Assembly (NCBI GenBank): GCA_007376485.1
Contig: VMGJ01000003.1
Coordinates: 17,252 to 81,251, forward strand
Direction of reading: 5' to 3'
From: Parcubacteria group bacterium Licking1014_17
Lineage (GTDB): Bacteria; Patescibacteriota; Minisyncoccia; 2-02-FULL-40-12; IGHO2-01-FULL-4-A
Length of the DNA stretch: 64,000 nucleotides
Shown piece after piece: positions 3,812 through 22,334 of this stretch; positions within the stretch are counted from its first letter, which is position 1; every line of letters begins with the position of its first letter. The translations under genes were made by a program, and so were the position numbers. The notes under the pieces are model-generated. The model had not been told where the DNA came from and made no database searches. It saw only the letters and a list, made by a program, of their open reading frames with translations.

Positions 3812-6301
3812 CTACTTTTCCGAGGCAGAGACTGACACTATTGTGTTGTTTTTTAAAAACAAAAATAATAATGTCCCAAATATTATTATGCCTATAATCC
3901 CAAACATAAGATTAATGGCACCCGGCTGATCTTGGTATTTAATTTCAACGATACCCGAACCCTCAGGAATTAAAACACCAAGATATGTAACGTTGCCCAA
4001 AAAAGTTTTCAAAGGTTGTGATGGTGGTACATTGCCATCGCCCCAAAATGCTTTCCAGTATTTATCATATGTTACTGGGAGAATCAGTATGCCTGGTAAA
4101 TCGTTATTTTTGATTTCAATCAATCTGTATCCATCGTCCTTTTTCAAAATTTTAAGTTGCGGAAAATGTTTTGAAATCGTTTCTTGGTTTTTCAAAACCG
4201 GTTCGGTTACTATGGCGAATTCATTGGGATTCCAGTTTGAACTAAAGAAATAAGAAAGCGCTTCATTTCTTTCCGTGATTAATTTTTCCTTACGGACAAA
4301 AGTATATTCCGGATAGTTGGTTTTTCGCTGCCAGAGAGATAGTCGATCCGCCGTGAATAATTTTTCCCACTCGGGGTTACGGATAATTAGGTCTTCGGAA
4401 CCTATTACGGTATTAACCCCATTAAGAACGAAGTAGCGGTTAGTAGCCTCCGAAAATTTAATACTCGGCTCGCTCATTCTGAGAGTCCCCAGGTCATTAT
4501 TTAGATAAGCAACGCTTTTCTTGAATTCATCAAACTTTACGGATGGGTCCAGATTTTTTTCAAAAATAAAACGATGGTAATTAAAAAGATCCGCATAAGA
4601 ACTATACATGGGGTTACGATAGCCGGTTATCGTGGAAAGTCCTAGTTGCAGAGGGCTGTTCTGGTGTACTCTCGCCCCTTTCGGTGTTTGTATCAATGCA
4701 ACTCGATCAATTTCCGGATATTTTTTGACCAAGCTTCCAAACTCGGTTTCCGGATAAAATAATTTGCTTGAATTAATGGCAAATGCCACCGGTGCCGCGC
4801 GTAAAAATAATCGCGCGAAGGAGGGAATTATCAAACTGAGTACAATCAGAAAAGTGGCAATGCTTTTTACCAGTCCTTGATTTGCCTCGGGGTTTTTACG
4901 GCTCAAAATAAACATCCCTAGCAAAAAAATCGCCGAGCTCGCGGAAATATAAATTGCTTCAATTAATATCTGGCGATGGCGAAGGTATCTGAAAACTGCA
5001 AAAACTGGAATAAAGACCACCATATATAACAAGGCGACCCCAATAATCCACTGAGCTCTTTTGCTTAATTGAAACTCCCCCCTTATTAGACTTCGCAAGG
5101 CATAGACGGTGGCAAAACTACCAAGCAAAAAAAACAAACCGGACGCGCGTATTGAAGTTTCTTCCCTAAAAGGACTGCCGATAATAACACTCAGAATAAA
5201 TTGGGTAATTCCGGTAAAATACAGAAGCCAAAAAAGAACCATCGTTGTGTAACCGCGATACCGTCTCCAAAATACATAAATACCGATGAAAAACAGAATC
5301 AAAAAAACTGGACCGGGGCTGAATACGCCGGCTGTGTTAGATCCATAAAGACCATAAAATTGTGAATTCCCGAAAAGAACACTGGTCAACTTGCGGTGGA
5401 ATTTAATCGGTTCGTAGCCAATCCATCCCAAGGGATCAAGGGCATAGTCCTTATGCTTTAACAACTCCGAAAGACTGAGATCGATATTTAGCTTGTTTGA
5501 CACGGAGAGAAACGACAAATGCCTTTCCAGAGAAAAATTTAAAACCAAAGCGGTCGCTCCAAACAAAATTCCAGTGACTATCAGCATAACCAAATACCTC
5601 TTTTTTTCGGCGGCAAAAAAATAGCCGACCCCCAATAATACAAAACATAAGCCAGCATACAAGTACAACTGGAAAAAGGCGGAAAGTAAAATACAAAAAA
5701 ATCCGGCTGTTGCCAGAAAAATAAACAGCCTTTTTCTGAAATAAAAATAAAACTGCACCATTCCTAACGTCGCCATTTCGTAACCGATAAGCGACATATT
5801 GTAGGCATCACCAAGAAAAAAATAAGAACACGTAATAGATAAAAATCCGAAAATAACAGAATAAAATATCTCAAATTTTAGAGAACGGGCTATCAGATAA
5901 CCCAAGGTAAAACTGATAAATAAGTATGCCAGCGCGGAAAAATTGGCACTTGAAGTAGTTGGTAAAAATTTATTGAAAAGACGGGTTAAGGTATGGGCAT
6001 TACCGGTATATCCCGCCGTAATCGGATAGCCGTTCATCACTCTTTCCGTATACGAATTCTGGTAGGAATTTTTGGCAAGATAATCAATTTCACCGGCAAT
6101 GAAATTGCTCTCAAAAATATAATCACCATCGCGCTCTTGGCTGCAATTCACCGGAGGATTCAACGACGACCAGGGATAATAACCTCGGCAATAAATCTGA
6201 TCCACCGGCAAAAATGTTTTGCCGGTTAGGTGCAAAACCGTACCAAACAGAGACAAAACAACAGCAAATAAAAATAAAAAAATAATTTCTTTTCTATACA
6301 T
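3812..6301 (-). CDS. YfhO-like large membrane protein (putative GT-C-type glycan transferase/polymerase)
   Basis: 829 aa. Many TM helices in the first ~450 aa, then a soluble domain, then a single C-terminal TM helix. This is the typical YfhO-family architecture. Overlaps the downstream GT2 gene by 8 nt. Confidence 0.5.
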   Translation of the reverse strand: MYRKEIIFLFLFAVVLSLFGTVLHLTGKTFLPVDQIYCRGYYPWSSLNPPVNCSQERDGDYIFESNFIAGEIDYLAKNSYQNSYTERVMNGYPITAGYTGNAHTLTRLFNKFLPTTSSANFSALAYLFISFTLGYLIARSLKFEIFYSVIFGFLSITCSYFFLGDAYNMSLIGYEMATLGMVQFYFYFRKRLFIFLATAGFFCILLSAFFQLYLYAGLCFVLLGVGYFFAAEKKRYLVMLIVTGILFGATALVLNFSLERHLSFLSVSNKLNIDLSLSELLKHKDYALDPLGWIGYEPIKFHRKLTSVLFGNSQFYGLYGSNTAGVFSPGPVFLILFFIGIYVFWRRYRGYTTMVLFWLLYFTGITQFILSVIIGSPFREETSIRASGLFFLLGSFATVYALRSLIRGEFQLSKRAQWIIGVALLYMVVFIPVFAVFRYLRHRQILIEAIYISASSAIFLLGMFILSRKNPEANQGLVKSIATFLIVLSLIIPSFARLFLRAAPVAFAINSSKLFYPETEFGSLVKKYPEIDRVALIQTPKGARVHQNSPLQLGLSTITGYRNPMYSSYADLFNYHRFIFEKNLDPSVKFDEFKKSVAYLNNDLGTLRMSEPSIKFSEATNRYFVLNGVNTVIGSEDLIIRNPEWEKLFTADRLSLWQRKTNYPEYTFVRKEKLITERNEALSYFFSSNWNPNEFAIVTEPVLKNQETISKHFPQLKILKKDDGYRLIEIKNNDLPGILILPVTYDKYWKAFWGDGNVPPSQPLKTFLGNVTYLGVLIPEGSGIVEIKYQDQPGAINLMFGIIGIIIFGTLLFLFLKNNTIVSVSASEK

Positions 6302-7007
6302 TCAGGTTTTTTCTTAGGCGGAATATGTATTTTATGGTTCTCCATATGGTTTTCAGCCGCCCCCTGAAACTTGGTGCCGATTTAGAGGTACCGTGCATCC
6401 TCTTTCCAAATTCAACCAGAAAATCTATAATTTCATATTTTTTCGATTTGGCTATGTATAACAAGTAAAGATCCAGTGAAAAATCCGATGGCGGCTTGGA
6501 AAGGTAGGCGACAAATTCACGTCCGAAAAGTTTCGGCTGGGCGTTAATCTCCCTAAAAATCCTGCCAAGAACTATTGAAGAGATAGTCGACATGCCACCA
6601 GTCAGAACAGACTCCAAAAATCTCCTCTCAATACGACGGCCTTTGATGATGCATTTTTTTCCATCCCGAATGTTTTGTAAATATAACTCATAGGCCCTAA
6701 AAACATCTGCCGGATCGGTTTGAAGGTCGGCGTGTGTCCAGCAGATAACATCACCGATAGCGGCTGAAACGCCCGACATGATGGCGCTGCCATAGCCTTT
6801 ATTAACATCGTAACTCACCGCTTTCATGAACGGGAATCTGCCTGATGCCTCCGCCTCTTTAAGACAAACTCCTGTTTGATCTTTTGATCCGTCATTTACG
6901 CAAACAAGTTCAAAATTACGGTTCTTAACAAATTTCAAAAACTCATTTAACACCAGTAACACGTTTTTCTCCTCATTATAAAACGGTATGACTATTGAAA
7001 ATTTCAT
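6294..7007 (-). CDS. family 2 glycosyltransferase (polyprenyl-phosphate sugar synthase-like, DPM/GtrB type)
   Basis: N-terminal FSIVIPFYNEEKNV, VCVNDGSKDQT and HADLQTDP motifs. Confidence 0.7.
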   Translation of the reverse strand: MKFSIVIPFYNEEKNVLLVLNEFLKFVKNRNFELVCVNDGSKDQTGVCLKEAEASGRFPFMKAVSYDVNKGYGSAIMSGVSAAIGDVICWTHADLQTDPADVFRAYELYLQNIRDGKKCIIKGRRIERRFLESVLTGGMSTISSIVLGRIFREINAQPKLFGREFVAYLSKPPSDFSLDLYLLYIAKSKKYEIIDFLVEFGKRMHGTSKSAPSFRGRLKTIWRTIKYIFRLRKNLNV

Positions 7008-7777
7008 TTTTTGTTCAGTTTAAAATAATTACTCCAGTATTCATATGTTTTCAGCTCAAACGGCGTGCCCCAGCAAAGAAATTTATCCACGTTGAAGATA
7101 TTTACCTTTAGATTGTTACCAATGGCAACGTTCATGCACTCATCAAGGGAAAATTCCGGCCCGCTTTTTATATTCTCTCTAATCATTTGCTCAATATTGT
7201 CAAAACACAATTTGGCCCTTCTAAACGTAAAGTGGCCGACGACGGCATGGTCCTCAAGTGGTGAATTGCTTATAGGTGTTTTATAGAAAACCCTGACTAC
7301 GCGGCCACTCTTTATTTTTATCCACCCATAGGAGGTTGGACTAATTTCCATGGGAGGATAATGGTTGAAAGACCACACCAACACATCTGACCTTTTTATT
7401 GTGCTATCAAATTTAAATTTGTCATATATCACGCCGCTATCGCAAGTGCCTACGGTTAATATTGATTCAGGATCAATGAGTTTTTTTGCAGCGAGACAGC
7501 TATGGGCTTGACCCTTTAATTCTCCTTTTTGAATTGCAATTTTTGATTTTGGATAATACCGCTTCAGAACCTTATCCAGAGAAAATTCATTGACTTGTTT
7601 TTCTGAAACGATAAAAACCAAATCATCGGCTCGGGGCAGACACCGGGTAGCCGCTACGATCATCGGCACGCCGTCAACGGAGATCAGGGGCTTGAGAACA
7701 TGATAACCGGCATCGCTGAATCTTTTGCCTAAGCCGGCTACCAAGACAAGGTTTGTTTTTGTTTTTTTACCGCTCAT
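7004..7777 (-). CDS. sugar-phosphate/phosphocholine nucleotidyltransferase-like (LicC/NTP_transferase family)
   Basis: N-terminal LVAGLGKRF...KPL motif of NTP-transferases. The C-terminal CWGTPFELKTYEYW resembles the LicC family. Confidence 0.55.
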   Translation of the reverse strand: MSGKKTKTNLVLVAGLGKRFSDAGYHVLKPLISVDGVPMIVAATRCLPRADDLVFIVSEKQVNEFSLDKVLKRYYPKSKIAIQKGELKGQAHSCLAAKKLIDPESILTVGTCDSGVIYDKFKFDSTIKRSDVLVWSFNHYPPMEISPTSYGWIKIKSGRVVRVFYKTPISNSPLEDHAVVGHFTFRRAKLCFDNIEQMIRENIKSGPEFSLDECMNVAIGNNLKVNIFNVDKFLCWGTPFELKTYEYWSNYFKLNKK

Positions 7778-8537
7778 TGTTATTGTTCAGAAAAAATTCG
7801 GACCAATACAGATAATCCCGCAAATCGCTAGGCGTCCCCCATTGGCAGAAATAATTTATCGGATAGATACCGCAATTCAAACCATCTTTGATCATCTCGT
7901 TATAAACCATGCTTACGTAATATTCGCCGTTTATTTTTTGTTTTTTATTCACTAGTTTCATAAAATACTTTTTCATCATTGCGCCTGATTTAAAATAATA
8001 AGCACCGCAGGAATGCCAGGAATCAAATTTGTTCGGAGTAAAAGAATGTTTTTCCATTATTTCAAGAATTCGGCCTGACGGTTCTGATTTTACGCCAGCG
8101 TAGAAATTATACCTAAGAAGGTGAGGATGAAAACCGGTATAACAGACAACGGCACCATCCAAATTGTCAAAAACAATTTTTCTCTTGAAATGACCAAAAT
8201 CCCAATGCATATTGAAGTCGCAATAATTAACAATAGCCGGTTCTTCGTCGGCAATATTTTTGAAGCATTCGACAATACTTGATACTGGACCGGAGTTTTT
8301 ATAATCAATTAACTGGATTTTGCCGCTCGGACATACTTTTTTAAGAATTTTTTCCAAATTAAAATTTCTTGCGTGGATTTTGTTGCAGATGAATAAAAAG
8401 TTTTTCTCACCCGGAAAAAGACGAATGACGTGTTCTATCATGCACGCGTCGTCAATTTTAATCAGAGGCTTGGGTTTCTTATAGCCCGCCCTGATAAACC
8501 TCTCACTCAAACCTGCCATTGGTATAATAATCTGCAT
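7767..8537 (-). CDS. nucleotidyltransferase-like paralog (LicC/NTP_transferase family)
   Basis: MAGLSERF...KPKPLIKI at the N-terminus and CQWGTPSDLRDYLYW at the C-terminus. Clear tandem paralog of 7004..7777. Confidence 0.55.
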   Translation of the reverse strand: MQIIIPMAGLSERFIRAGYKKPKPLIKIDDACMIEHVIRLFPGEKNFLFICNKIHARNFNLEKILKKVCPSGKIQLIDYKNSGPVSSIVECFKNIADEEPAIVNYCDFNMHWDFGHFKRKIVFDNLDGAVVCYTGFHPHLLRYNFYAGVKSEPSGRILEIMEKHSFTPNKFDSWHSCGAYYFKSGAMMKKYFMKLVNKKQKINGEYYVSMVYNEMIKDGLNCGIYPINYFCQWGTPSDLRDYLYWSEFFLNNNNER

Positions 8538-8541
8538 AATT

Positions 8542-9213
8542 TTAGCCGGCCAAGATCCCGGATAGCGTTATCTTCTTAAATCCAAGTTCTTTGTTAATTA
8601 TTATTGTACGTATGCCTAGTTTTCTTGCGCCAGCGACGTCGCGTTTGCGATTATCACCCACCATCACTACCTGACTTGGCTTAAGCCCACATTTTTTTAG
8701 CGCAACCCTAAAAATAGCCGCCGAGGGCTTATCACCACCAGCTTCTTCCGAAGTAACCACAAAATCAACGAATCTATCCAGAGCCAATTTTGAAATTTTT
8801 TCAAACTGCACTCTGGCTGTCAGGTCGGTGATAACCACCGTCTTCAGTCCAGCCTTTTTTATTGACCGTAAAAATTCCAGGATTCTAGGACGCAGGTGGA
8901 TTTTATCCATGAAGGATTTCCAGAATACGGCTTCGGCCCGCATAACAATTGTTATAGGAGTCAAGTTGGTTAACTCCTCTAAACAACCCTGAATATATAG
9001 AAACCTTGAATGACTTGAGGCCAGTCCTTTAAGATTAGAATGCGTTTTTTTTCTAGCCCTATTATAAGCTGTGGCTATTTTTTTCTGCGGAATATTTAAT
9101 TTGCCGCTTAAATAATCAAACACCGCTTTTCTTCCGGCCGCATCGCACTCAGCGTAAGAATATAAGGTGTCATCTATATCTATAAAAATTCCATTGATTT
9201 TTTTTAATCCCAT
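8542..9213 (-). CDS. HAD-superfamily hydrolase/phosphatase
   Basis: Motif I FIDIDDTLY (DxDxT) near the N-terminus. A later VMVGDNRKRD matches motif IV. Confidence 0.65.
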   Translation of the reverse strand: MGLKKINGIFIDIDDTLYSYAECDAAGRKAVFDYLSGKLNIPQKKIATAYNRARKKTHSNLKGLASSHSRFLYIQGCLEELTNLTPITIVMRAEAVFWKSFMDKIHLRPRILEFLRSIKKAGLKTVVITDLTARVQFEKISKLALDRFVDFVVTSEEAGGDKPSAAIFRVALKKCGLKPSQVVMVGDNRKRDVAGARKLGIRTIIINKELGFKKITLSGILAG

Positions 9214-9794
9214 AAATTTCCAAACTTAAGGTCAACCATCACGGCATCTGGAGTGTATTTTAGCTTTTTCAGCTTGCGCCGGTATTTCAAAATGTCATCC
9301 GGCCGCCCCCAGCGATCCGGCGAAACCAAACAGGTTTTAAATCCTGATATTTTATTGATAATTTTCTTATCGAGTGGCAACGTTGTATTTGTGTCAATCC
9401 AGAGCCAGTCTAATTTACTTTTTTGTTTTATCGCCATTTCAACGGGTTCGTCTTCGCTATAACGCACGGCGATTTGCCTTATTCCGCTACGAACGGCACG
9501 GTATAAATATGGAAATTCAACGTCCAAAAGAAAATATTTGCTTTTGGAAATCTTGTGTTTTTGTGCGAGTTTTATACATGTTTGTTCTATACCTGATTCC
9601 TTGATGTTGAAAATCAAAAAAGCATGCTCAAAGTTCTTTAAATATTCATCCAAATCATCACCGTCTCCCGGTTCGTGATTTAAATAAACCTTTCCGCTTC
9701 GATTATCATGTCTAACATCAATTTCCACGCCCCAGTTTCCCGGTACTTTAGCCAAGTCTGCGATTTTATTGATTCGATGCGCTATTTTTATCAT
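9204..9794 (-). CDS. hypothetical protein, possible GDPD/PI-PLC-like phosphodiesterase
   Basis: Weak motif resemblance only: an N-terminal IAHR and EIDVRHD...YLNHE pattern. Confidence 0.3.
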   Translation of the reverse strand: MIKIAHRINKIADLAKVPGNWGVEIDVRHDNRSGKVYLNHEPGDGDDLDEYLKNFEHAFLIFNIKESGIEQTCIKLAQKHKISKSKYFLLDVEFPYLYRAVRSGIRQIAVRYSEDEPVEMAIKQKSKLDWLWIDTNTTLPLDKKIINKISGFKTCLVSPDRWGRPDDILKYRRKLKKLKYTPDAVMVDLKFGNLWD

Positions 9795-10612
9795 TTTAAT
9801 ATTGCGTATTTATTCTTCCTATATTTTTCCTGGCGCATATTCCGAATTTTTTTCACTTCGCTCGCGGAAAGAAAGTTTGGCGTTTTCCCCAGTTTTGAAA
9901 TTGAATCAAGTATGTAATTATGCGCTGAATATAATTCAAAAAATAATTCTTTTCGCTCCAGGGCAATATCCATCTTATTCTTTGTGAAAAACACGACAGA
10001 ATCCGGAAAAAGATGATTATTAACATCACATCTCTCTTTTAACACTTTAAAGGGAACTATGCCATTTTTCTCCAGATATTTTTTTGCATATAAATCAGTG
10101 ATCATCATTAAATCAAGAGCTTTTTGAGCGCTATTGTGATGTGTTATTAACCCATGATTTTGTAAAACTATAACCGATGGCAATGTTTTGTTTTTACGAA
10201 TGGCCTTTTTTAACTCTCGGCCTATATCGGCCCCCGGCCGCCTGAATCGCAAGAACAAGAAAGGTAACTTTATTATTTTTCTTAATTCCTGCTCGCCATT
10301 CTTCATACAGCTGAAAACATTAATAGACACCGAGTGTGCATGAATAACATATTTAGAATCAATCAGAACATGTAGGAACGTTTCTATTGAAGGGGTGCTG
10401 GAATCACCGTTAGCGACAACGATCATATCTGGTGAGTTTTTAACCTTGATGTAACCGTAATTTTTCCTAATATCGCGCAGGCAAAAACCCGATGCCTTAA
10501 TAACAATATGGCCGTTAGTTTTTATGGATACATTTCCACCCGGACCCTGAACCAGATCCGGCAAGCTCCCAATGTATTTTGAGATTCTAAGAAAATGTTG
10601 CATTTTTACCAT
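9791..10612 (-). CDS. class II aldolase/adducin-domain protein (fuculose-P aldolase / ribulose-5-P 4-epimerase family)
   Basis: GPGGNVSIK and HAHS motifs typical of class II aldolases. Confidence 0.6.
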   Translation of the reverse strand: MVKMQHFLRISKYIGSLPDLVQGPGGNVSIKTNGHIVIKASGFCLRDIRKNYGYIKVKNSPDMIVVANGDSSTPSIETFLHVLIDSKYVIHAHSVSINVFSCMKNGEQELRKIIKLPFLFLRFRRPGADIGRELKKAIRKNKTLPSVIVLQNHGLITHHNSAQKALDLMMITDLYAKKYLEKNGIVPFKVLKERCDVNNHLFPDSVVFFTKNKMDIALERKELFFELYSAHNYILDSISKLGKTPNFLSASEVKKIRNMRQEKYRKNKYAILK

Positions 10613-11333
10613 TATAAAAGTTATAGAGATAATTTATAAAGAATATCTGATGTACACCCATAAGTCCCGATTCAAACTTGGGGCTACCCTCAACAAGATC
10701 ATTCAGGTTTGGATAAAGCGAATAGGCAACCTTTTCAATTTCAGCCGAATCAACATCACCTTGAATGCATAATTGCTGATAATCAATGGAATGATATTTG
10801 TGTTCGATTTCTAATCTCAGAAGTTTAAGTTCCGCTACGAGGGCGTCTATTTTAATCGAGTTCTTTAGTAAATATCCTAAGGACAAAAAACCGTTTTTGT
10901 CGGTAGTGTAATGAATTGACCAGTCGGCAAATTGTTTTTGAGGATGGATAAATTTTTCCGCATCGGGACGGCGTTTTTCAATTTGTGCGCTAACTGTCTG
11001 GGCTTGATATTTTCTTTCTTTCTGATCACGTAAAATCTTCCATTTCATCCGCAATACCTCGTCTGCTTCCATGTATATTTTAAGATCTGGGAGATTTCTC
11101 ATTTTATCCAGCAAAAAGGTCATCAGACCCTGAAAAACGATGAATTTATTTGGGTGTATTTTAATAGGATCCGTAAATTTCCCGGAATCATGGTCGTAAC
11201 AGACACGATCTATAATTTCCCCGCGCATCAACGTTTCCGCATGTTCGTAATCCGTATGGATATAATTACCCCTGGGGGTCCAAATGTGTGATGTCTTGCC
11301 AATGCGGATCGCTACGTTCCCACCTATGAACAT
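10587..11333 (-). CDS. C-terminal remainder of the PRK/uridine-kinase-family domain, displaced by a +1 frameshift
   Basis: Starting at RGNYIH, ...CYDHDSGKF...IHPNKFIVFQGL continues the PRK/uridine-kinase fold exactly where the previous ORF stops. Removing one G from the GGGGG run at 11275-11279 fuses the two ORFs into ...THLDPRGNYIH... Confidence 0.6.
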   Translation of the reverse strand: MFIGGNVAIRIGKTSHIWTPRGNYIHTDYEHAETLMRGEIIDRVCYDHDSGKFTDPIKIHPNKFIVFQGLMTFLLDKMRNLPDLKIYMEADEVLRMKWKILRDQKERKYQAQTVSAQIEKRRPDAEKFIHPQKQFADWSIHYTTDKNGFLSLGYLLKNSIKIDALVAELKLLRLEIEHKYHSIDYQQLCIQGDVDSAEIEKVAYSLYPNLNDLVEGSPKFESGLMGVHQIFFINYLYNFYNGKNATFS

Positions 11334-13062
11334 CGTCGCCGTTAATGACGACAGTTTTATTATCGCCGGTAATTTTTTTAAGCGTGTCGACGAGCGTTGA
11401 CTTGCCCACGCCTGAGTCTCCAGCTATTGCGATAAGAAAACGCTCTCTGGTCTTTTGAAAAATCTGGTTGCTTTGCATTCCCATCTTATAGGACCAAGCT
11501 AGTAGGACGGCCACGGAAATTTCTAGAGCTGTGAAAAAAATATTTTCCACGATAAATCCTTTGTTCCCGAGAATTTCAAACAAAGTTAGACCGCGCAGAA
11601 ATGAAGGTACCACTGATCTCAAGCTTTCAAATACATCTGAATTTTTCGTGAATGAGAAGAAAAGAATGAAAAAAACATTTACTACGGCAAAACTTATGAT
11701 CGGCGCTTTTTTAAATTTAATAATAAAGAAAACTAAAAACGGAAGCGCCCAGTAATACCATCCGGGCATGGGAGGAACCAGCACAATAAGCGCAGTATAG
11801 GTCAAACCAATGGCTAATATAAGTGAGTCTGAATTTAATTTCTTATAAGAGCCAAATTTGTATATTATCAGAAGAATTGCAGCTGGAACGACAAATAGCG
11901 TTACGTCTCTAAAATAGAAGGGTATAGCCAGAGAAAATATCCTTTGCTGTTCCGGATTATTGAAAACCATGTTTAAAAATCCACCTGAAAGTAAATATGG
12001 ATTCAAAGCCACAAAAGTTAGAAATGAAGCTACCAAATATGATGCCATTTTGGAAAAGCGAACCCCGTTCCGGTAGAGATAGATCAGGTAAAATGGCAAA
12101 GCAGCAATGACGTGTGTTTTTGCCGCAATGCCCAAGCCAAGAATAATAAAAGATAGCAGCTGTTTTTTTCGCACCAAAAAAATTATGGAGAGCATGAGAA
12201 GCGCCGTCGGTATGACGTCTAGTTGGCCATGGAAGTAGTTTATGAAAAATAAAATCGGCGAAGCATAATAAATCCACAAAATCTTTTTTCCATGGGTCGG
12301 AAGCAACGAGCACAAAGATAAGTAGATCAAAACATCAAAAACTAAAATGGGAACCCTCAAAAGAAAAAGCTCCAAATTCAGATTATTGAGCCAGTCAAAT
12401 GGCAATAATTGTTTAGCTGCAATTAGCGGCAATCCCTCAAAAATAAGCATGCCTGAAGGATATGGAAATGGCGTCACAGACAAGGCGTTGAAATATTCGT
12501 ATGGGTTTTTAAAGGTGGCCGCAAAATAATTAATGAAAGGTATAAACCCATTTATTATATAGTGCGAGCCAAATAAAGTTCCGCTAATCAACTTGATTGC
12601 GGAAATAATCCAAAAAGAAATACCAAGATAAGGAACAAATTTCAAAACCCTATCTCGGGATGCATGATTAAAAATCAGATATTTGAGCCCGAAGAAATTA
12701 CTCAAGGTGGAAAAGCAAATTCCGAAAATATTGGCTATAAGAGGGTGCAGTCCGAATTTGACAAGCACACCCAAAACAACAACACTTAGGACCAGGGATG
12801 AAATATAAACTCCTGTATAAAGAATTAATTCAGTGGCTCTGCGTTTAATTACGGGCTGAAATGTCCATCTTCTATTGAGTAGGTATCCAAAAACTAAGCC
12901 ACTGACATATCCGACAACCGTAGCCAAATAGTAATTGACAGAAAAAATTTGAAGGAGCAAAAAAAATAGCCCGTAATTAATAACAGTGCTTAAAGATCCA
13001 ACAACAATAAACCTAGTAAATTGATTGTTTTTTAAACGCATAAACGTCCCAATCGGGCTCAT
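11266..13062 (-). CDS. N-terminal part of a frameshifted gene: GtrA-like domain + large polytopic membrane domain + Walker-A region of a PRK/uridine-kinase-family kinase
   Basis: The N-terminus (FIVVGSLSTVINYGLFFLL...RRWTF) is GtrA-like. About 12 TM helices follow. The C-terminal IAIAGDSGVGKST is a near-exact match to the phosphoribulokinase/uridine kinase P-loop. The ORF stops at 11266. Confidence 0.6.
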   Translation of the reverse strand: MSPIGTFMRLKNNQFTRFIVVGSLSTVINYGLFFLLLQIFSVNYYLATVVGYVSGLVFGYLLNRRWTFQPVIKRRATELILYTGVYISSLVLSVVVLGVLVKFGLHPLIANIFGICFSTLSNFFGLKYLIFNHASRDRVLKFVPYLGISFWIISAIKLISGTLFGSHYIINGFIPFINYFAATFKNPYEYFNALSVTPFPYPSGMLIFEGLPLIAAKQLLPFDWLNNLNLELFLLRVPILVFDVLIYLSLCSLLPTHGKKILWIYYASPILFFINYFHGQLDVIPTALLMLSIIFLVRKKQLLSFIILGLGIAAKTHVIAALPFYLIYLYRNGVRFSKMASYLVASFLTFVALNPYLLSGGFLNMVFNNPEQQRIFSLAIPFYFRDVTLFVVPAAILLIIYKFGSYKKLNSDSLILAIGLTYTALIVLVPPMPGWYYWALPFLVFFIIKFKKAPIISFAVVNVFFILFFSFTKNSDVFESLRSVVPSFLRGLTLFEILGNKGFIVENIFFTALEISVAVLLAWSYKMGMQSNQIFQKTRERFLIAIAGDSGVGKSTLVDTLKKITGDNKTVVINGDDVHRWERSDPHWQDITHLDPQG

Positions 13063-13069
13063 GTCCGAA

Positions 13070-14113
13070 TCAGTTTATGATCTTATTTTCTCGGATGAAT
13101 TTCTTTATTTCTTCCGGCGAAAGAAGAGATTTGTGCGAATAATGTGCTTTGTGGTTGGTCTTGCCTGGTCTTCCAATTTTATAACGGGGCAATTTTTGAT
13201 ATGGAGCGAGTTGCGGAAGAATCACCAGCATATCTTTAGTCTCTATAATATTGCCAGATTCGTGCTCGGCAAAAAGACTTTCGTGTATTTTTTCACCTGC
13301 TCTCATACCGGTAAGAATAACCTTAGGTCTATTTTTAAGACCACGGATTTTTACATATTCATCAATCAGTGAATTAGCTAAATCTTCTATTTTAACAGCC
13401 TTCATTTTGAAGACAAAAATTTCGCCTCCTTGCATTAAGTGAGTTGCATTGACTATTAGCTCAACGGCTTTATTCATTGGCATGAAAAATCTGGTTATCT
13501 CAGGCGAAGTAACAAAAACAGGTCCGCCTTTTTTAATTTGATCTAAAAACAAAGGGATCACAGAACCATTAGACATTATAACATTGCCAAATCTAACACT
13601 AGAAAAAACTGGAAATTTGCGCCCCTTATGAAAATTAGCGGCCGTAATTATTTTTTCTCCCAGTAGTTTTGAAGCGCCTAGCGTTCCCGTCGGATTCACG
13701 GCTTTGTCGGTACTAATATACACAACTCTCTCTACATTGTTATGGATAGCAGCATCGATAACATTTTGAGTTCCCAATACATTAACCTTAACTGCTTCAA
13801 ACGGATTGTATTCACAAAATGGTACATGCTTGTAGGCTGCTGTGTGATAAATGATATTTACTCCCTCAGCCGATCTTCTAATACGATCGGCATCGCGTAC
13901 ATCACCAAGAATAAATCTAAATTTTTCGTCTCTTGTTTTTTTATCTAGACTCTGCTCGAATTTAAAAAGAGAGAATTCGTGAATATCTAATATTCTTATT
14001 GCCTTTGGTTTATATTTTAAGACTTCTAATGCAAGTGCGCCACCAATAGAACCGGCTCCCCCAGTTATAAGTATATTCTTGCCTTTTATGATTTTTTTAG
14101 CATCCTTAACCAT
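13070..14113 (-). CDS. UDP-GlcNAc 4,6-dehydratase-like (PseB/CapD/FlaA1 family) short-chain dehydrogenase
   Basis: ILITGGAGSIG Rossmann motif and YISTDKAVNPTGTLGASKLLGEK matching the CapD/PseB family. First gene of the nonulosonic-acid cluster. Confidence 0.75.
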   Translation of the reverse strand: MVKDAKKIIKGKNILITGGAGSIGGALALEVLKYKPKAIRILDIHEFSLFKFEQSLDKKTRDEKFRFILGDVRDADRIRRSAEGVNIIYHTAAYKHVPFCEYNPFEAVKVNVLGTQNVIDAAIHNNVERVVYISTDKAVNPTGTLGASKLLGEKIITAANFHKGRKFPVFSSVRFGNVIMSNGSVIPLFLDQIKKGGPVFVTSPEITRFFMPMNKAVELIVNATHLMQGGEIFVFKMKAVKIEDLANSLIDEYVKIRGLKNRPKVILTGMRAGEKIHESLFAEHESGNIIETKDMLVILPQLAPYQKLPRYKIGRPGKTNHKAHYSHKSLLSPEEIKKFIRENKIIN

Positions 14114-14823
14114 TTGTTGTGGAATTTATTTCTGTTTCTATAGATAATTTCGGCATTTATAAAGTCATTAATATCGTCCAGATCCAACGATTGCCATCTG
14201 TCCATGATATATGGCCTAATCCTCGCTTTTAAAAAAGAACGCGTTTTTATAAAAACCTCGCGCGATATCAGATATATTGCAGAGCCATTGAGTCGGTATG
14301 TAGCCTGCAATGATTGTCTGTTGGTCTTTCTTATCCAATTCTTATTAAACAAAATATCAATAAAACCATCCTTGATCCCATAAAGCAATTGTTCCGTCGA
14401 ACACATAGAGACTACTCCATCACAATCACCACTATTTAAAATATTTATACAATTGTCAATATCTCTGGAGGTTCTAAGCGGCGAGGTTGTCTGAAGCAAT
14501 AAAATGTAATCTGGAATATAATTCTCGTCCCTTTTCAGTTTTTCTATAAGATGAAGGATTGTATCAACAATAGGACTGGAGTCGGTTGCTAACTCCTTTG
14601 GCCTCAAAAATGGCACCTCAGCATTAAAGCGCCTCGCTATCTTGGCATACTCCTCACTATCTGTTGAAACAATCAGCCTATCTATGTGCCTAGATTTTAA
14701 CGCCTCACTAATGGTGTAATAAATAAGTGGCTTACCGCAAAAACTTTTTATATTCTTATCTTTTATCCCCTTACTGCCACTACGGGCGGGAATAATTGCC
14801 AGAACTTTTTTATTCTTTACCAT
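14086..14823 (-). CDS. CMP-nonulosonic acid synthetase (acylneuraminate/pseudaminate cytidylyltransferase family)
   Basis: N-terminal LAIIPARSGSKGIKDKNIK...GKPLI is the CMP-NeuAc/CMP-Kdo synthetase signature. Confidence 0.7.
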   Translation of the reverse strand: MVKNKKVLAIIPARSGSKGIKDKNIKSFCGKPLIYYTISEALKSRHIDRLIVSTDSEEYAKIARRFNAEVPFLRPKELATDSSPIVDTILHLIEKLKRDENYIPDYILLLQTTSPLRTSRDIDNCINILNSGDCDGVVSMCSTEQLLYGIKDGFIDILFNKNWIRKTNRQSLQATYRLNGSAIYLISREVFIKTRSFLKARIRPYIMDRWQSLDLDDINDFINAEIIYRNRNKFHNKWLRMLKKS

Positions 14824-14827
14824 AATT

Positions 14828-16153
14828 CTAGTTATATTTCTGGAAAACGCCTTTCACTGTCGGTCCTATAAGTTCTTTTTCCAATTTGTCATCGGAGATA
14901 GCCACAGCCAGCTTGGATAGCGCCTGATCGAAAACTTTCAATGTATCCGAAATTTCCTTTCTCTTGTGTGAAAAGGAGACGGCGAAATAACCCTGGAACA
15001 AAATATTTCTACTGACAATTTCCTGCAGAAAAACAGTTCTTATCAACGCTGAAGATTCACCCTTCTTGTCAAAAAAACCCATGCTCAGGTTCGGCGGAAA
15101 CCCAAATACCTTGACGTGATTTTCTATGCCGCGTTTAGCAATCAATTTTTGCAGGCCATTCTGAAGGAGTTTGCCCATTTTCCAAAAATGGTCGGTAACA
15201 CGTTTATTCTTCATTTCTTCTATAGTCGCCATACCTGCGGCCAAAGAAATAGTTTCGGCGCCATGGGTGGTTGAGATAAGAAAAACTTTCGGCGATTTTT
15301 TCTGAATTATTCCCCCAAGTTCCATTATATCTCTGCGTCCGGCAAGTACGGCCAAAGAATAGCCATTGGCAATGCCCTTCCCATATGTTGAGAGGTCTGG
15401 TTTTATGCCAAAATATTTTTGAGCACCGCCTAATCCCCATCTGAATCCGGTTATCATTTCATCAAGAATAAAAACAGCTCTGTTGGCATGGCATAAGTTC
15501 TGTACGGATTTGAGAAAATTATCCCGGGGCGGTTCTGAGGTGGCTGCCTCCATGATTACGCAAGCAATTTTGTTTCTATAGTCGTTGAAAAGTTTTTCTA
15601 AAGTACTAATGTCGTTATACCTGAAACATAGGGTGAGTTTTCTAATTTCCTCCGGGACGCCACTGTCACAGGCCGTGGTTCCGATAAACCAATCGTCATA
15701 ACTGAAGAAAGGGTGGTCTTTGCAAAATGCGATATATTTTCTGCCCGTGTGGGCGCGGGCAAGCTTTATTGCGGCCGTGGTTACGGTTGATCCATTTTTG
15801 GCAAATTTTACCATCTGTGTAGCCGGCAACACTTTTATCAGGTAATCGGCAAGTTCAAATTCAATCGCATGGGGACGACCAAAGTTAGTACCTTCTTTCA
15901 TTTGTCTTGAAACGGCATCGTTGACTTTTTTATAACAGTGGCCCAAAGAAACAGAACGCAAACCCATGCACCAGTCCAGATATTTCTTTCCGTTTTCGTC
16001 CCAGACATAAGCACCGGCTCCTTTAATAATTACCTTCGGAGCATTTGCGGGAAACTGATCATCACCCTTGGAATAAGTATGCGCCGCACCGGGAATAAGC
16101 CGATGTCGTTTATCAATAAGTTTTTTTAACTTTGATTTGTTCATAGCGACCAT
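14828..16153 (-). CDS. class III (GSA-aminomutase-like) PLP-dependent aminotransferase
   Basis: DEMITGFRWGLGGAQ...STYGKGIANG pattern of class III aminotransferases. Confidence 0.65.
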   Translation of the reverse strand: MVAMNKSKLKKLIDKRHRLIPGAAHTYSKGDDQFPANAPKVIIKGAGAYVWDENGKKYLDWCMGLRSVSLGHCYKKVNDAVSRQMKEGTNFGRPHAIEFELADYLIKVLPATQMVKFAKNGSTVTTAAIKLARAHTGRKYIAFCKDHPFFSYDDWFIGTTACDSGVPEEIRKLTLCFRYNDISTLEKLFNDYRNKIACVIMEAATSEPPRDNFLKSVQNLCHANRAVFILDEMITGFRWGLGGAQKYFGIKPDLSTYGKGIANGYSLAVLAGRRDIMELGGIIQKKSPKVFLISTTHGAETISLAAGMATIEEMKNKRVTDHFWKMGKLLQNGLQKLIAKRGIENHVKVFGFPPNLSMGFFDKKGESSALIRTVFLQEIVSRNILFQGYFAVSFSHKRKEISDTLKVFDQALSKLAVAISDDKLEKELIGPTVKGVFQKYN

Positions 16154-16935
16154 TATAAAGCGGTCCAGCCGCCATCCACAATAAGATTATGACCAGTAAC
16201 ATAGCTTGAAGCATCAGACATTAGGAATATTAACGCTCCACATATGTCGCCTGTTTTAGCCATACGGCCCAATGGTGTTTTTTTTGAATAATTTTCCACG
16301 AATTTTTTATCTTGTCCGGCGTATATTCCTCCCGGAGTTATGGTATTGGCTCTTACACCATACCTGCCGAAAGTCGTTGCCAGATAACGTGTAAAATTAA
16401 TCAGTCCCCCTTTCTGGAAACAATAATACTCCGGACAATTAATCTTATCATCGGGGTAAATTGACTGATCGGGTCCTACAACACCATAAATTGAAGCGAT
16501 ATTTATCACGCAACCGCTTCTTTGTTTTTTCATAATTTCCAAAGTTTTTTGAGTAATCAGAAAAACACCGTTAATATTTACATCAGTTGTTTTCTTGAAA
16601 TCGTCTAGGTCTCGCTTTAAAAAATCGGAAACAGGAGCTCGGAGAACGGCATTATTAACTAAGCCATCAATGCGGCCGAATTTTTCAAGGAAATTACGTA
16701 AACAACTTTGAACAGATTCCGGTTTGGTTATATCCAATTTGAGCATTGCGACCTGGCGATCGTATTTACTGAATTTACTTCTTGCTTTTGAAAGTAATTT
16801 GGGATCAATATCGGCGATACCCACATTTGCGCCGCTTTCAAGGAGAGCTTCGGCGAAAACAACGCCCAAAAGACCTGCCCCGCCAGTTACAATAATGCTT
16901 TTATCTTTGAGTAAAAACGATTTCTGGTTAAACAT
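16153..16935 (-). CDS. SDR-family oxidoreductase
   Basis: VTGGAGLLG Rossmann motif, NNA..., and a catalytic Y/K region (IYAGQ). Confidence 0.65.
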   Translation of the reverse strand: MFNQKSFLLKDKSIIVTGGAGLLGVVFAEALLESGANVGIADIDPKLLSKARSKFSKYDRQVAMLKLDITKPESVQSCLRNFLEKFGRIDGLVNNAVLRAPVSDFLKRDLDDFKKTTDVNINGVFLITQKTLEIMKKQRSGCVINIASIYGVVGPDQSIYPDDKINCPEYYCFQKGGLINFTRYLATTFGRYGVRANTITPGGIYAGQDKKFVENYSKKTPLGRMAKTGDICGALIFLMSDASSYVTGHNLIVDGGWTAL

Positions 16936-16946
16936 ATAGGCGTTTA

Positions 16947-18056
16947 TTATAGCATTTTAAATAGCTCTCGGCAAATATACTTAACATCATCCTTGGAAAT
17001 ACCAATGTAAAAAGGAAGTGCGATTGAACCGTTGCTTATTTTCTCAGAAACCGGAAAATCGCCGCGCTTGAAATTAAAACTTTTCCTATAAAAACTGAAC
17101 AGATGAATCGACGGAAAGTAAGTTTTGGCATGAACCCCCGCCTTGTCCAGATTTTTTATTATCTCATCCCTTTGCTTGCGATTTTTGTTGACGGTTATCA
17201 CATATACAAACCAAGAATGATCCCTGCCGGGACCGATTACTGGCGGATTAATGACGTCAGAATCTTTTAGAAATTCGTTGTACCAGCCGGCAATTTCTTT
17301 TTTCTTGTTTATCAGAAAATTTATCTTTTTGATTTGTGAAACTCCAAGCGCAGCACTCATTTCATCAAGTCTGTAGTTATATCCGAGATATTTATGATCA
17401 AGCCAACCCATGTTTGCCGCCCGACCCTGGTTTCTCAAACTGCAGCACAATGCATGAATGCGCTTATTGTCGGTGACGATAATTCCGCCTTCTCCGGTGG
17501 TCATTTGTTTATTTGGATAAAAGGCAAAGACAGCAACGTTGCCAAAAGTTCCGGCTTTTTTTCCGTGATATTTCGCTCCAATACTCTCACAGGCGTCCTC
17601 TATTATTTTTAGTTTATATTTCCTCGCAATTTTAATAATGCGGCCCATGTCGGCAGTTTGACCAAAAACATGTACAACTAGAATTGCCTTGGTTTTGGAA
17701 GTTATCTTTGATTCTATTTTTTCCGGGTCAATGTTAAAGGTTACAGGCTCAATGTCCACAAAAACTGGCTTGGCACCAACATATAAAATAGCATTTGACG
17801 AAGCCACAAAAGAAAATGGGGTCGTAATAACTTCGTCGCCAGCACCGATTCCTATAGTGATTAATGCTAAATGTAGACCGGCCGTACCGCTATTTACGGC
17901 ACATGCGTGCTCGGTCCCGATAAAATCGGCAAATTTTTTCTCAAATTCAACAACCTTGGGACCGATACTTAAATAAGGAGTGTCTAAAACGCTCAGAACC
18001 GACCTTTTGTCGTCTTCGTCTATAAAGGGCCGAGCTATTGGATAGGTTTTTTTCAT
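16947..18056 (-). CDS. DegT/DnrJ/EryC1/StrS-family sugar aminotransferase (PseC-like)
   Basis: Typical DegT family features: a VNSGTAGLHLAL-type motif, HVFGQ..D and IIEDACESIGA. Confidence 0.75.
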   Translation of the reverse strand: MKKTYPIARPFIDEDDKRSVLSVLDTPYLSIGPKVVEFEKKFADFIGTEHACAVNSGTAGLHLALITIGIGAGDEVITTPFSFVASSNAILYVGAKPVFVDIEPVTFNIDPEKIESKITSKTKAILVVHVFGQTADMGRIIKIARKYKLKIIEDACESIGAKYHGKKAGTFGNVAVFAFYPNKQMTTGEGGIIVTDNKRIHALCCSLRNQGRAANMGWLDHKYLGYNYRLDEMSAALGVSQIKKINFLINKKKEIAGWYNEFLKDSDVINPPVIGPGRDHSWFVYVITVNKNRKQRDEIIKNLDKAGVHAKTYFPSIHLFSFYRKSFNFKRGDFPVSEKISNGSIALPFYIGISKDDVKYICRELFKML

Positions 18057-18100
18057 TTTTTGATTATTGAAAGGCCCGGAATTGACCGAGCCTGAAGGTA

Positions 18101-18520
18101 CTATTTCTTAATTTTCTTTACGACTTTGGCTGGCACGCCGAAAGCTATGACGTTACCAGGAATGTCGTGATTGACAAAGCTAAAGGCGCCAACGACCGAA
18201 TTTTTGCCGACGGTGACGCCAGGCATTATAACGCTATGGGAACCGATTCTGCAACCGGCCCCGAGCGTTACTCTGCCTTGCTTGTGATCAATGGTGGAAA
18301 CCGAATAAACGGAACAGTGCGAACCGATTTCTACCCCTTCACCTATCTCAACGCCATGTAAGGCGTTAATGTAGGTAAATGCGCCGATGTCGGTATTTTT
18401 TCCCAGCTTTAAATTTTCCGGGTGTTGGACCATCCAGTTCCACTTGGTAAGTCTGCCATGCTTAATTTCTGGCATTTTCCAGTTGTGAAATCTGGGTTTT
18501 TGAGTTTTTTTCTCTGTCAT
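18101..18520 (-). CDS. hexapeptide-repeat (LbH) sugar N-acetyltransferase
   Basis: Repeated [LIV]G..xx[IV] hexapeptides (IGAFTYINALHGVEIGEGVEIGSHCSV...). Confidence 0.65.
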   Translation of the reverse strand: MTEKKTQKPRFHNWKMPEIKHGRLTKWNWMVQHPENLKLGKNTDIGAFTYINALHGVEIGEGVEIGSHCSVYSVSTIDHKQGRVTLGAGCRIGSHSVIMPGVTVGKNSVVGAFSFVNHDIPGNVIAFGVPAKVVKKIKK

Positions 18521-18534
18521 GATTCTCCTTTCGT

Positions 18535-19188
18535 TTATTTCCTATAACACTTTAACAATTCAAATGATTCAGCAAACTTGAAACCCGATTCTGATGCTCT
18601 TTTTTCCGCCAAGGCTTTAATTGCCCTCAACGACCGCGGGTGAGGATATGTCATTAATTCGCTTTTGTAAGCTTTCATGGCCTTGATTTTATATTTTAAC
18701 GTATCGCTTATGTCTTCAAAAACATTTGCCCTAAAAGAGCCCATTCCCCATTCGGTTTCGGATAGTGTTTCATAGGTATAAATTTCTTCAACCGAACATT
18801 TCCCTATCGGCCGTGTAGCGACAAGACAGGCTTCATAAACAAGCCGATGATCGAAATGCAAATCATCACGATGAGGAATATAAATTGCTTTTGGCACAAA
18901 ATTTTTGATTATTTCCTTTATTTTAAAATTAAGATCTTTTTTGGGAATGGAATCTAATTTGGCCGCCGGAAAACCAAGAAAATATTTTTCCGCAACACCT
19001 AATACAAAACAGGCTCTTGTGATTTCCTTTTCCTTATTTTTTATATACGCAGCCGTCCATTCCGGTTCATATGCCTGGGTGACAAAACAGACGCGTATTT
19101 CGTCGCCCTTACTAGCTCTTTTTTTAATAGTACCGCCGCAACCGAGAACCTCATCGTCGGCATGGGGAGCCACAATTAAGATTTTCAT
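18535..19188 (-). CDS. PIG-L/LmbE-family deacetylase
   Basis: N-terminal ILIVAPHADDEVLGCGGTI and HRDDLHFDH motifs of the LmbE family. Confidence 0.65.
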   Translation of the reverse strand: MKILIVAPHADDEVLGCGGTIKKRASKGDEIRVCFVTQAYEPEWTAAYIKNKEKEITRACFVLGVAEKYFLGFPAAKLDSIPKKDLNFKIKEIIKNFVPKAIYIPHRDDLHFDHRLVYEACLVATRPIGKCSVEEIYTYETLSETEWGMGSFRANVFEDISDTLKYKIKAMKAYKSELMTYPHPRSLRAIKALAEKRASESGFKFAESFELLKCYRK

Positions 19189-19259
19189 TTATCGTTGGGT
19201 TGGATGCTAAATGCCTCAGCAAGATAACATGCCTATAAAAATAGTCAATCGTATTGGAA

Positions 19260-21192: not shown

Positions 21193-21195
21193 ATT

Positions 21196-22248: not shown

Positions 22249-22334
22249 TTATATTAATTTTAGAACAAAATAAAAGAAAAAGTCAATATCAAAAGCAATT
22301 TTTGCAGTAAATGACGAAAATATAAAAACCGAGG

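Follow-up and report, generated by a model that had tools for sequence, protein, structure and literature searches.

The gene discussed here encodes a multidomain membrane protein with a kinase domain and lies in a stretch of 64,000 nucleotides from Parcubacteria group bacterium Licking1014_17 (contig VMGJ01000003.1, positions 17,252 to 81,251 of the forward strand). This stretch as a whole is called the window in the following; all coordinates refer to it. At the locus, two open reading frames (ORFs) on the minus strand overlap by 68 nt (Table 1). The coding strand across their junction reads TTG GAC CCC CAG GGG TAA, and the removal of one base of the G5 run on the plus strand results in an uninterrupted product of 824 amino acids, which reads ...DITHLDPRGNYIH... 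/ ...THLDPRGNYIH.... The genuine coding part of the downstream ORF runs from ~11273 down to 10590 and provides the remaining ~228 residues of a phosphoribulokinase (PRK) domain, and positions 11274-11333 of this ORF are out-of-frame overlap only. We think it likely that one extra C in a C4 run of the coding strand divides a gene which normally has one uninterrupted frame, and that the kinase of the intact product would contribute to the formation of a glycan donor. The intact product would be an inner-membrane protein that consists of an N-terminal four-helix GtrA-type domain, a GT-C domain and a cytoplasmic, complete PRK-fold domain.

Table 1. Features of the interrupted gene and of the operon in which it is found.
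Feature	Position	Strand	Remarks
Upstream ORF	11266..13062	minus	598 aa, ends ...DITHLDPQG*; GtrA, GT-C and first ~58 PRK residues (P-loop, catalytic Asp)
Premature TAA closing the upstream ORF	11266-11268	minus	
Downstream ORF	10587..11333	minus	248 aa, contains ...TPRGNYIHTDYEH...; +1 frame
G5 run	11274-11278	plus	reads as C5 (GAC CCC C AG) on the coding strand; one-base deletion restores the frame
GtrA/DPMS transmembrane domain	12670..13014	minus	residues 17-131; PF04138 87.7 bits (cut-off 26.1)
Polytopic membrane domain, predicted GT-C fold	11458..12621	minus	residues ~148-535
Kinase domain, predicted PRK fold	10590..11451	minus	residues ~538-824, frameshift at residue 597; PF00485 108.5 bits (cut-off 22)
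Class II aldolase/adducin-family gene	9791..10612	minus	PF00596; co-conserved in 66/80 loci
196-aa protein	9204..9794	minus	no Pfam match; co-conserved in 62/80 loci
HAD hydrolase	8542..9213	minus	best NCBIfam model ribulose-1,5-bisphosphate 5-phosphatase; co-conserved in 59/80 loci
Two paralogous sugar-phosphate nucleotidyltransferase-like genes	7767..8537 and 7004..7777	minus	co-conserved in 75/80 loci
GT2 glycosyltransferase	6294..7007	minus	237 aa; PF00535; co-conserved in 65/80 loci
829-aa polytopic membrane protein at the operon end	3812..6301	minus	no Pfam/NCBIfam match

That the locus holds one interrupted gene, and not two genes or a chance overlap, follows from the behaviour of the repaired protein at the junction. 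PF00485 matches it in a single stretch (residues 543-718, model positions 1-189 of 196, E=5e-31) that runs across residue 597, where the frame changes. The 63 intact homologues found in the databases, which together with the repaired protein form the family alignment of 64 sequences used here, align end to end with 30-61% identity and are all continuous across the site. An AlphaFold2 model of the repaired protein (mean pLDDT 93, pTM 0.90) has no dip near residue 597. Across the site the homologues read THLNPK[GAS]N, and the arginine that is restored at position 597 corresponds to a lysine or arginine in 53 of the 64 aligned sequences. A frameshift at this site was found neither in the 63 homologous proteins nor in 81 loci searched with tblastn, and internal frame changes occur in only two other assemblies among these loci, near residue 250 in L027 (locus coordinates ~8684-8703) and near residue 360 in L063 (~822-882). 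Both are assemblies of metagenome-assembled genomes (MAGs), from which the background of broken copies in metagenome assemblies can be put very roughly at ~2-3%. In the locus of the nearest relative (L081, 60% identity), the genes follow each other in the same order and this gene, of 698 amino acids, is intact.

The original prediction had described the two ORFs as one gene that is split by a one-base frame change and restored by removing one G, had expected an intact protein of ~825 amino acids, and had proposed to compare orthologues and to search the repaired protein with PF04138 and PF00485. All of this agrees with what we find: the repaired product has 824 amino acids and three domains, both Pfam models score above their cut-offs (Table 1), and none of the 63 homologues and 81 loci is split here, so that the relatives do not encode two separate proteins. 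The G5 run is indeed present, but it lies one base lower than the 11275-11279 given in that prediction. A functional split into two proteins was also considered and rejected, since the break disrupts the core of the kinase at a point past the catalytic Asp and before the Tyr/His motif, and since no homologue is split there; the ATG at 11333 in the +1 frame is incidental and has no visible ribosome-binding site.

The deposited sequence derives from a MAG that was obtained from Illumina HiSeq 2500 reads by idba_ud assembly and MetaBAT binning (PMC5581439). The upstream ORF is 100% identical to the database protein P0001, 'Parcubacteria group bacterium Licking1014_17 CEN90_316', and the deposited annotation calls a truncated protein of 591 amino acids, an 'uncharacterized protein', and leaves the kinase half unrecognised. 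As assembled, the stop comes two codons past the extra base, at residue 598. Judged from its sequence, such a product would retain the GtrA domain, the GT-C domain and the P-loop, and its kinase would be inactive because the Tyr/His substrate motif and the Arg-Asp-Arg lid are missing.

The frameshift is the lone lesion in an otherwise intact operon. As the 228 codons past the shift and the six downstream genes contain no second lesion, with every invariant residue kept, the damage is either very young or not real. The extra base would not be a designed feature; it could be a very recent inactivating mutation, a minority allele that was picked up by the assembler, or an assembly error. An artefact of sequencing or assembly, in which the organism has C4 and an intact 824-aa gene and the extra base stems from the idba_ud consensus or from minority reads, is a serious candidate, although we would not go so far as to call it probable. 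The site is a homopolymer, the remaining operon is intact and tightly packed, all invariant residues are present in the lesion-free codons downstream, and the isolated frame breaks that two more MAG assemblies show elsewhere in the gene are what sporadic assembly noise would produce. Indel errors are, however, rare at 5-base runs in Illumina HiSeq data, and the truncated 591-aa protein is likewise found in the deposited annotation. Nor was a second assembly of the organism found for comparison; an exact-pattern scan of JGI metagenomes with both the C4 and the C5 version gave 0 matches.

To the same degree, short of even odds, we can envisage a genuine recent loss-of-function mutation, fixed or polymorphic, in an episymbiont in which the cassette described below is being lost or is dispensable. 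The C5 run is supported by the Illumina consensus, the gene is part of a low-GC and probably horizontally acquired glycan island in which surface-glycan genes turn over fast, and the cassette is mobile elsewhere, for example in an IS26-flanked plasmid copy; yet the absence of a second lesion in 824 codons and six downstream genes means that any inactivation must be very young.

Two further explanations would give the extra base a function. CCC-C is a classical +1-prone tRNA-Pro site, and a leaky or programmed +1 ribosomal frameshift could yield the full-length protein at a reduced and possibly regulated level. A tRNA-Pro that slips from CCC to the next CCC re-pairs perfectly, which gives ...DPRGNY... 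and thus the same product as the repair of the DNA. We regard this as very unlikely: no stimulator is seen, the 0-frame A-site codon is CAG and thus neither a stop nor obviously rare, the sole Shine-Dalgarno-like sequence, AGGGG, lies downstream and not upstream of the slip site, and the shift is conserved in 0/81 loci and 0/63 proteins. Background slippage at sites of the CCC-C type amounts to ~1% or less. With no stimulatory element visible and no conservation of the shift, +1 slippage is possible in principle but amounts at most to background leakage. A slip at GGG-UAA (mRNA GAC CCC C AG GGG UAA, 11270-11282) would place a Q where 53/64 homologues have K/R. The second of these explanations is phase variation, in which slipped-strand mispairing at the G/C tract switches a surface-glycan modification on and off. 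It would suit a surface-glycan gene with a lesion inside a homopolymer, but known contingency tracts have ~7 bases or more and this tract has only 5, or 4 in the ON state. Moreover, the G5 tract is unremarkable in itself because the window contains 43 G or C runs of exactly 5 bases, and the homologues do not require a homopolymer at the site, where their codons vary (N/D-P-K/R-G/A/S). Phase variation is therefore the most improbable of the causes that we weighed. The original prediction had offered a sequencing error, a recent pseudogenisation or phase variation; the first two are retained here, and the third is unlikely on account of the 5-base tract and of its missing counterpart in the homologues.

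Each of the three domains that had been predicted for the intact protein, i.e., a GtrA domain, a polytopic membrane domain and a PRK-like P-loop kinase, could be recognized in the repaired product. The GtrA domain is clearly identified by PF04138 (Table 1), and its model consists of four long helices (3-39, 44-67, 75-102 and 107-130). The polytopic domain is less easily assigned. It reaches 19 bits with GT87, under the cut-off of 25, and some homologues exceed Pfam cut-offs, namely P0004 with GT87 (32.6), P0032 with Alg6_Alg8 (26.8) and P0060 with PMT_2 (29.5). As a profile of the membrane domain retrieved nothing but PIG-M (E=0.81) from the PDB sequences, a separate model of the domain (pLDDT 89.5) was required to reveal its fold. 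In a Foldseek comparison with the PDB, this model matches GPI mannosyltransferase I (9wno, E=2.6e-5), ALG3 (9s6r) and ALG6 (6snh, TMq 0.66), and further matches are PIG-U, ALG9/12, ArnT, STT3 and EmbB, and also 5ezm and 6x0o, from which we assign a predicted GT-C fold to the domain. Its invariant polar residues are D243, the HGQLD motif (Q280 and D282), K315 and E371. The acidic residues among these are D243, D282 and E371; a transmembrane topology deduced by helix counting runs into a parity conflict.

The kinase domain is much nearer to PRK than to uridine kinase. Against the PDB sequences, cyanobacterial, plant and archaeal PRKs are matched with E ~4e-35 and uridine kinases with ~1e-12, and the udk models of NCBIfam give 81 bits, to be compared with cut-offs of 180-220. 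In Foldseek comparisons the modelled domain matches 9qkp, 5b3f and 6kev (E=1e-17 to 1e-14, TMt 0.64-0.78) over ~310 columns of whole PRK chains, with a TMt of 0.77 over 311 columns for 9qkp, and the model thus suggests a complete phosphoribulokinase fold that extends beyond the shared nucleotide-kinase core. The Walker A P-loop GDSGVGKST (GxxGxGKS/T) is strictly conserved at G548, S550, G553 and K554, which are invariant in 64/64 sequences. In CrPRK, the catalytic or ribulose-5-phosphate (Ru5P)-binding residues are D57, R64, Y103, H105, R159, D160 and R164 (PMC9978339; bioRxiv 10.1101/422709). These seven correspond, by alignment to 6kev, to D576, R583, Y622, H624, R678, D679 and R683 of the repaired protein, and each of them is invariant in the 64 sequences. 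In structure, the kinase domain comes nearest to the recently released entries 9qkn, 9qko and 9qkp, termed 'cyanobacteria-specific PRK', one of which was deposited as 'uridine kinase'; we found no description of the function of this PRK paralogue group in the searchable literature.

The family to which the repaired protein belongs is widespread. The GtrA N-terminus is found in 17 of the 64 aligned sequences, with the window's repaired protein counted, and the three-domain homologues (P0003-P0016, P0026 and P0028) have lengths of 772-846 amino acids. For the two-domain GT-C–PRK core, a scan of GTDB with one genome per species gives at least 561 species representatives. Among the matches listed, this core spans the Bacteroidota, Bacillota (Paenibacillus, Virgibacillus, Halobacillus), Acidobacteriota and Omnitrophota, and also Melainabacteria, Myxococcota, Lachnospiraceae, Acetobacter and DPANN archaea. 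When only the membrane domain was searched with phmmer against 1.84 billion representatives of clusters at 50% identity, 847 clusters matched with E<=1e-3 and 199 with E<=1e-30. Nearly all full-length hits of the membrane domain, among the matches listed, have 660-750 or 800-845 amino acids, and from these lengths the GT-C domain appears to be essentially always fused to the kinase.

In view of the 17 of 64 sequences with three domains, of the species representatives and clusters just mentioned, and of a member on an E. coli IncR plasmid, the fusion cannot be called unique, as it had been in the original prediction. The statement made there that the combination is not a described family agrees with our literature searches for the GT-C–PRK fusion or for the cassette, which returned no description. 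Jaffe et al. report no more than PRK homologues, in Gottesmanbacteria and Peregrinibacteria, and mention neither a fusion nor a membrane domain, and RefSeq names the plasmid-borne member of E. coli 'uridine kinase'. The family is thus already visible in the databases, where it is misnamed, and it is functionally undescribed in the searchable literature.

The gene sits in a 30-kb glycan operon on the minus strand, and the six genes directly behind it accompany the family in other genomes, as counted over 80 loci (Table 1); shortfalls in these counts are probably due mostly to truncated contigs, as several loci are short. The aldolase-family protein is matched by the NCBIfam models for rhamnulose-1-phosphate aldolase, MtnB and FucA, always under the cut-off, and all of these models describe enzymes that act on ketose-1-phosphates. 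The HAD hydrolase has its best match in a recently defined family, the haloarchaeal ribulose-1,5-bisphosphate (RuBP) 5-phosphatase, which is here encountered in a bacterial glycan operon. A profile of the 196-aa protein found nothing significant among the PDB sequences (best WbbM, E=0.035); its homologue on the E. coli plasmid is named 'PI-PLC/glycerophosphodiester phosphodiesterase family protein' in RefSeq. The two nucleotidyltransferases, which match 4evw in the PDB (E=6e-11), are fused into one protein of ~550 amino acids in many other genomes. The GT2 protein, which has no C-terminal membrane helices, finds its weak best matches in polyprenyl-phosphate glycosyltransferases (PgfS with 55.6 bits and a cut-off of 500, ArnC with 52.2 and 529, and PpgS).

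None of the 80 related loci encodes a homologue of the 829-aa membrane protein at the end of the operon, whose C-terminal soluble domain is large, and in many genomes the cassette is followed by large membrane proteins of varying, unrelated families. This variable protein is placed as an acceptor-specific component would be. An impression by eye that the 829-aa protein is 'YfhO-like' was dropped, as Pfam and NCBIfam gave no family, and the same searches with its counterparts in E. coli and Virgibacillus found no family except DUF6798 in Virgibacillus.

The genes upstream are not conserved with the family, as the nonulosonic-acid genes are found in at most 8 of the 80 loci. They form a full pseudaminic/legionaminic-type set at 13070-23843 with a PseB-like dehydratase, a CMP-transferase, a class III aminotransferase, a short-chain dehydrogenase/reductase (SDR), DegT, a hexapeptide acetyltransferase, a PIG-L deacetylase, a NeuC-like epimerase, a formyltransferase, NeuB and a KpsS/C-like capsule protein, and L081 shares part of this set. 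The GC content is 0.36-0.40 over the glycan operon (1-34000) and 0.42-0.51 in the rest of the window (34000-64000), a shift in keeping with a glycan island gained by horizontal transfer, which is more likely here than a chimeric contig.

A complete cassette is present in E. coli on a 33-kb IncR plasmid (L082, NZ_CP145712.1, 6022-14984), where it is located beside IS26. It comprises a fused nucleotidyltransferase, a free-standing GtrA, a GT2, a PI-PLC-like protein, the GT-C–PRK protein, a HAD, a class II aldolase and a hypothetical protein of 586 amino acids, and the plasmid annotation has GtrA, GT2 and the GT-C–PRK gene in a row. DNA searches for near and distant copies in 5426 complete E. coli genomes located the cassette in 2, each time on a plasmid of ~33 kb, and not in the other 5424. 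Cultivable carriers are E. coli S1-CAM-01-A, with the cassette on plasmid p5, and Virgibacillus necropolis. The hosts of this plasmid copy are a human-stool E. coli and a bullfrog isolate with a 100% identical copy.

For the substrate, the order of the steps and the product we infer the following route, set beside the observed frameshift, domain folds, residue conservation and gene co-occurrence. The PRK domain would phosphorylate Ru5P, or a pentulose phosphate much like it, and thereby produce the 1,5-bisphosphate. The HAD hydrolase would then remove the 5-phosphate, which turns RuBP into ribulose-1-phosphate, and the class II aldolase-family enzyme would convert the pentulose phosphate further, by epimerization or rearrangement. 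The paired nucleotidyltransferases, and in a broader route also the PI-PLC-like protein, would activate the product, so that GT2 and GtrA could load the sugar on polyprenyl phosphate and flip it. Finally, the GT-C domain, the variable large terminal membrane protein, or both, would transfer the sugar to a surface glycan outside the cell. A ketopentofuranose side chain such as xylulofuranose may be the product, which is an attractive speculation. Genes for the xylulofuranose precursor in E. coli O95 and O97 have been reported as not found (PMC7685785).

A different role had been suggested in the original prediction, with a lipid-linked or polymeric glycan as the substrate of the kinase; in such a reading the fused GT-C domain would hold the glycan, which would take the place of free Ru5P. 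The covalent fusion to a lipid-carrier-binding membrane domain, which the listed full-length matches of 660-845 amino acids suggest to be essentially universal, speaks for this idea, as does the missing conservation of the Walker-B-like Glu, and a phosphodiester-linked sugar could fill the site of the Ru5P phosphate. Against this, the seven substrate-binding and catalytic residues of PRK are all invariant, the domain is as near to authentic PRKs as PRKs of different kingdoms are to each other, and the co-conserved HAD and ketose-1-phosphate aldolase-family enzyme fit a soluble bisphosphate intermediate. We therefore consider phosphorylation of a glycan unlikely. As the PRK residues are invariant and as a RuBP-5-phosphatase-like HAD and a class II aldolase are co-conserved, a soluble pentulose phosphate would be the substrate, and the gene content and residues favour a soluble sugar-phosphate kinase that feeds a lipid-linked glycosylation donor.

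Several points weigh against the interpretation as a whole. Many GT-C enzymes carry a catalytic Asp in the first loop, and no Asp or Glu is conserved at >=85% in this loop (residues 164-202) in the 64-sequence alignment; the structural matches of the membrane domain moreover include PIG-U, whose GT-C fold is non-catalytic. Where PRK has its Walker-B-like Glu (IEGL), the family varies, with Q in 22, E in 15 and V in 13 of 64 sequences, and the NCBIfam PRK model NF005655 gives 183.8 bits against a cut-off of 236, so the kinase is not an equivalog. The HAD hydrolase likewise stays under the equivalog cut-off of 330 for NF053830 (E=1.5e-53, 181.8 bits). A ketose-1-phosphate is no obvious substrate for a sugar-1-phosphate nucleotidyltransferase followed by GT2, which leaves the middle of the pathway unexplained, and the main route gives the PI-PLC-like protein no part. 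Concerning the frameshift, an error and a real mutation look alike in the assembly, and the fact that Illumina seldom miscalls 5-base homopolymers weakens a pure error as its cause.

The frameshift itself is routine and mainly an annotation matter. The family behind it, however, occurs in hundreds of species, from CPR (candidate phyla radiation) bacteria and DPANN archaea to Firmicutes, Bacteroidota and a plasmid of E. coli, and at present it carries the label 'uridine kinase' or 'phosphoribulokinase'. It could mislead genome surveys in which PRK homologues are counted as a sign of a Calvin-type cycle. Only tentatively, and with more doubt than conviction, do we propose that it marks a widespread, horizontally mobile and undescribed cassette of eight genes, in which a genuine phosphoribulokinase would serve the making of a surface-glycan donor and not carbon fixation. 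If this were true, RuBP would be an intermediate toward a surface-glycan donor, which would be a new role for this compound, and the family could provide a handle on sugars that have no known activation route.

The membrane part of the protein can be compared with the GT-C_B enzymes (PIG-M/GPI-MT-I, ALG3, ALG6 and ALG9/12, and bacterial GT87 such as PimE), with which it shares the predicted membrane fold (TM-scores of 0.58-0.66); some family members exceed the Pfam cut-offs for GT87, Alg6_Alg8 or PMT_2. It differs from these enzymes in that no acidic residue reaches 85% conservation in residues 164-202, the presumed first loop, and in being apparently in essentially all cases fused to a cytoplasmic kinase. 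The kinase, in turn, resembles PRK (6kev, 6hzk and 5b3f; 9qkp and 9qkn) in the modelled full fold including the C-terminal sheet extension (TMt 0.77, ~310 columns; Foldseek identity 22-28% over the whole fold), in the sequence match of E=4e-35 over 176 residues, and in the P-loop, the catalytic Asp/His and the Ru5P-binding Arg/Tyr/Arg-Asp-Arg, which are present and invariant. It differs from PRK in being fused to a GT-C domain of ~400 residues, here together with GtrA, in its score under the NCBIfam cut-off (183.8 vs 236), in its variable Walker-B-like Glu, and in having a glycan operon as its context, without Calvin-Benson-Bassham cycle or RuBisCO genes. Because the curated PRK score is not reached and the context differs, we do not file it as a PRK equivalog.

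A precedent for the proposed middle steps exists in haloarchaea (Sato et al. 2022, PMC9700705), where one operon codes for RuBP 5-phosphatase and for a class II aldolase whose substrate is the ribulose-1-phosphate that the phosphatase forms. The cassette resembles this non-carboxylating pentose bisphosphate pathway insofar as the HAD hydrolase matching RuBP 5-phosphatase adjoins a class II aldolase-family gene. In contrast to the haloarchaeal route, RuBP would here arise from Ru5P through the PRK domain and not from nucleosides via ribose-1-phosphate kinase and ribose-1,5-bisphosphate isomerase, and the aldolase of the cassette is nearer to the RhaD/MtnB type than to FucA. Furthermore, the context with nucleotidyltransferases, GT2 and GT-C is anabolic and not catabolic, and the scores are under the equivalog cut-offs. 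The pentofuranose systems of Kelly et al. 2024 (PMC11127046) work with a MATE flippase and with a polyprenyl-phosphoribose synthase that depends on phosphoribosyl pyrophosphate (PRPP), both of which are absent here.

In its architecture, the cassette as a whole resembles the three-component periplasmic glycosylation systems (GtrA/GtrB/Gtr* and ArnC/ArnEF/ArnT, to which the pentofuranose systems also belong). It differs from these in bringing along a five-enzyme branch for the donor (PRK domain, HAD, class II aldolase, two nucleotidyltransferases, PI-PLC-like protein), and in its short GT2 of 237 amino acids, which has no C-terminal membrane helices and fails the curated models of the GtrB/ArnC type. 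In common with them, it co-encodes a GtrA-type protein, a GT2 whose relatives are polyprenyl-phosphate glycosyltransferases, and a protein with a predicted GT-C fold, and it is followed by a variable large membrane protein, in the manner of the serotype-specific Gtr*.

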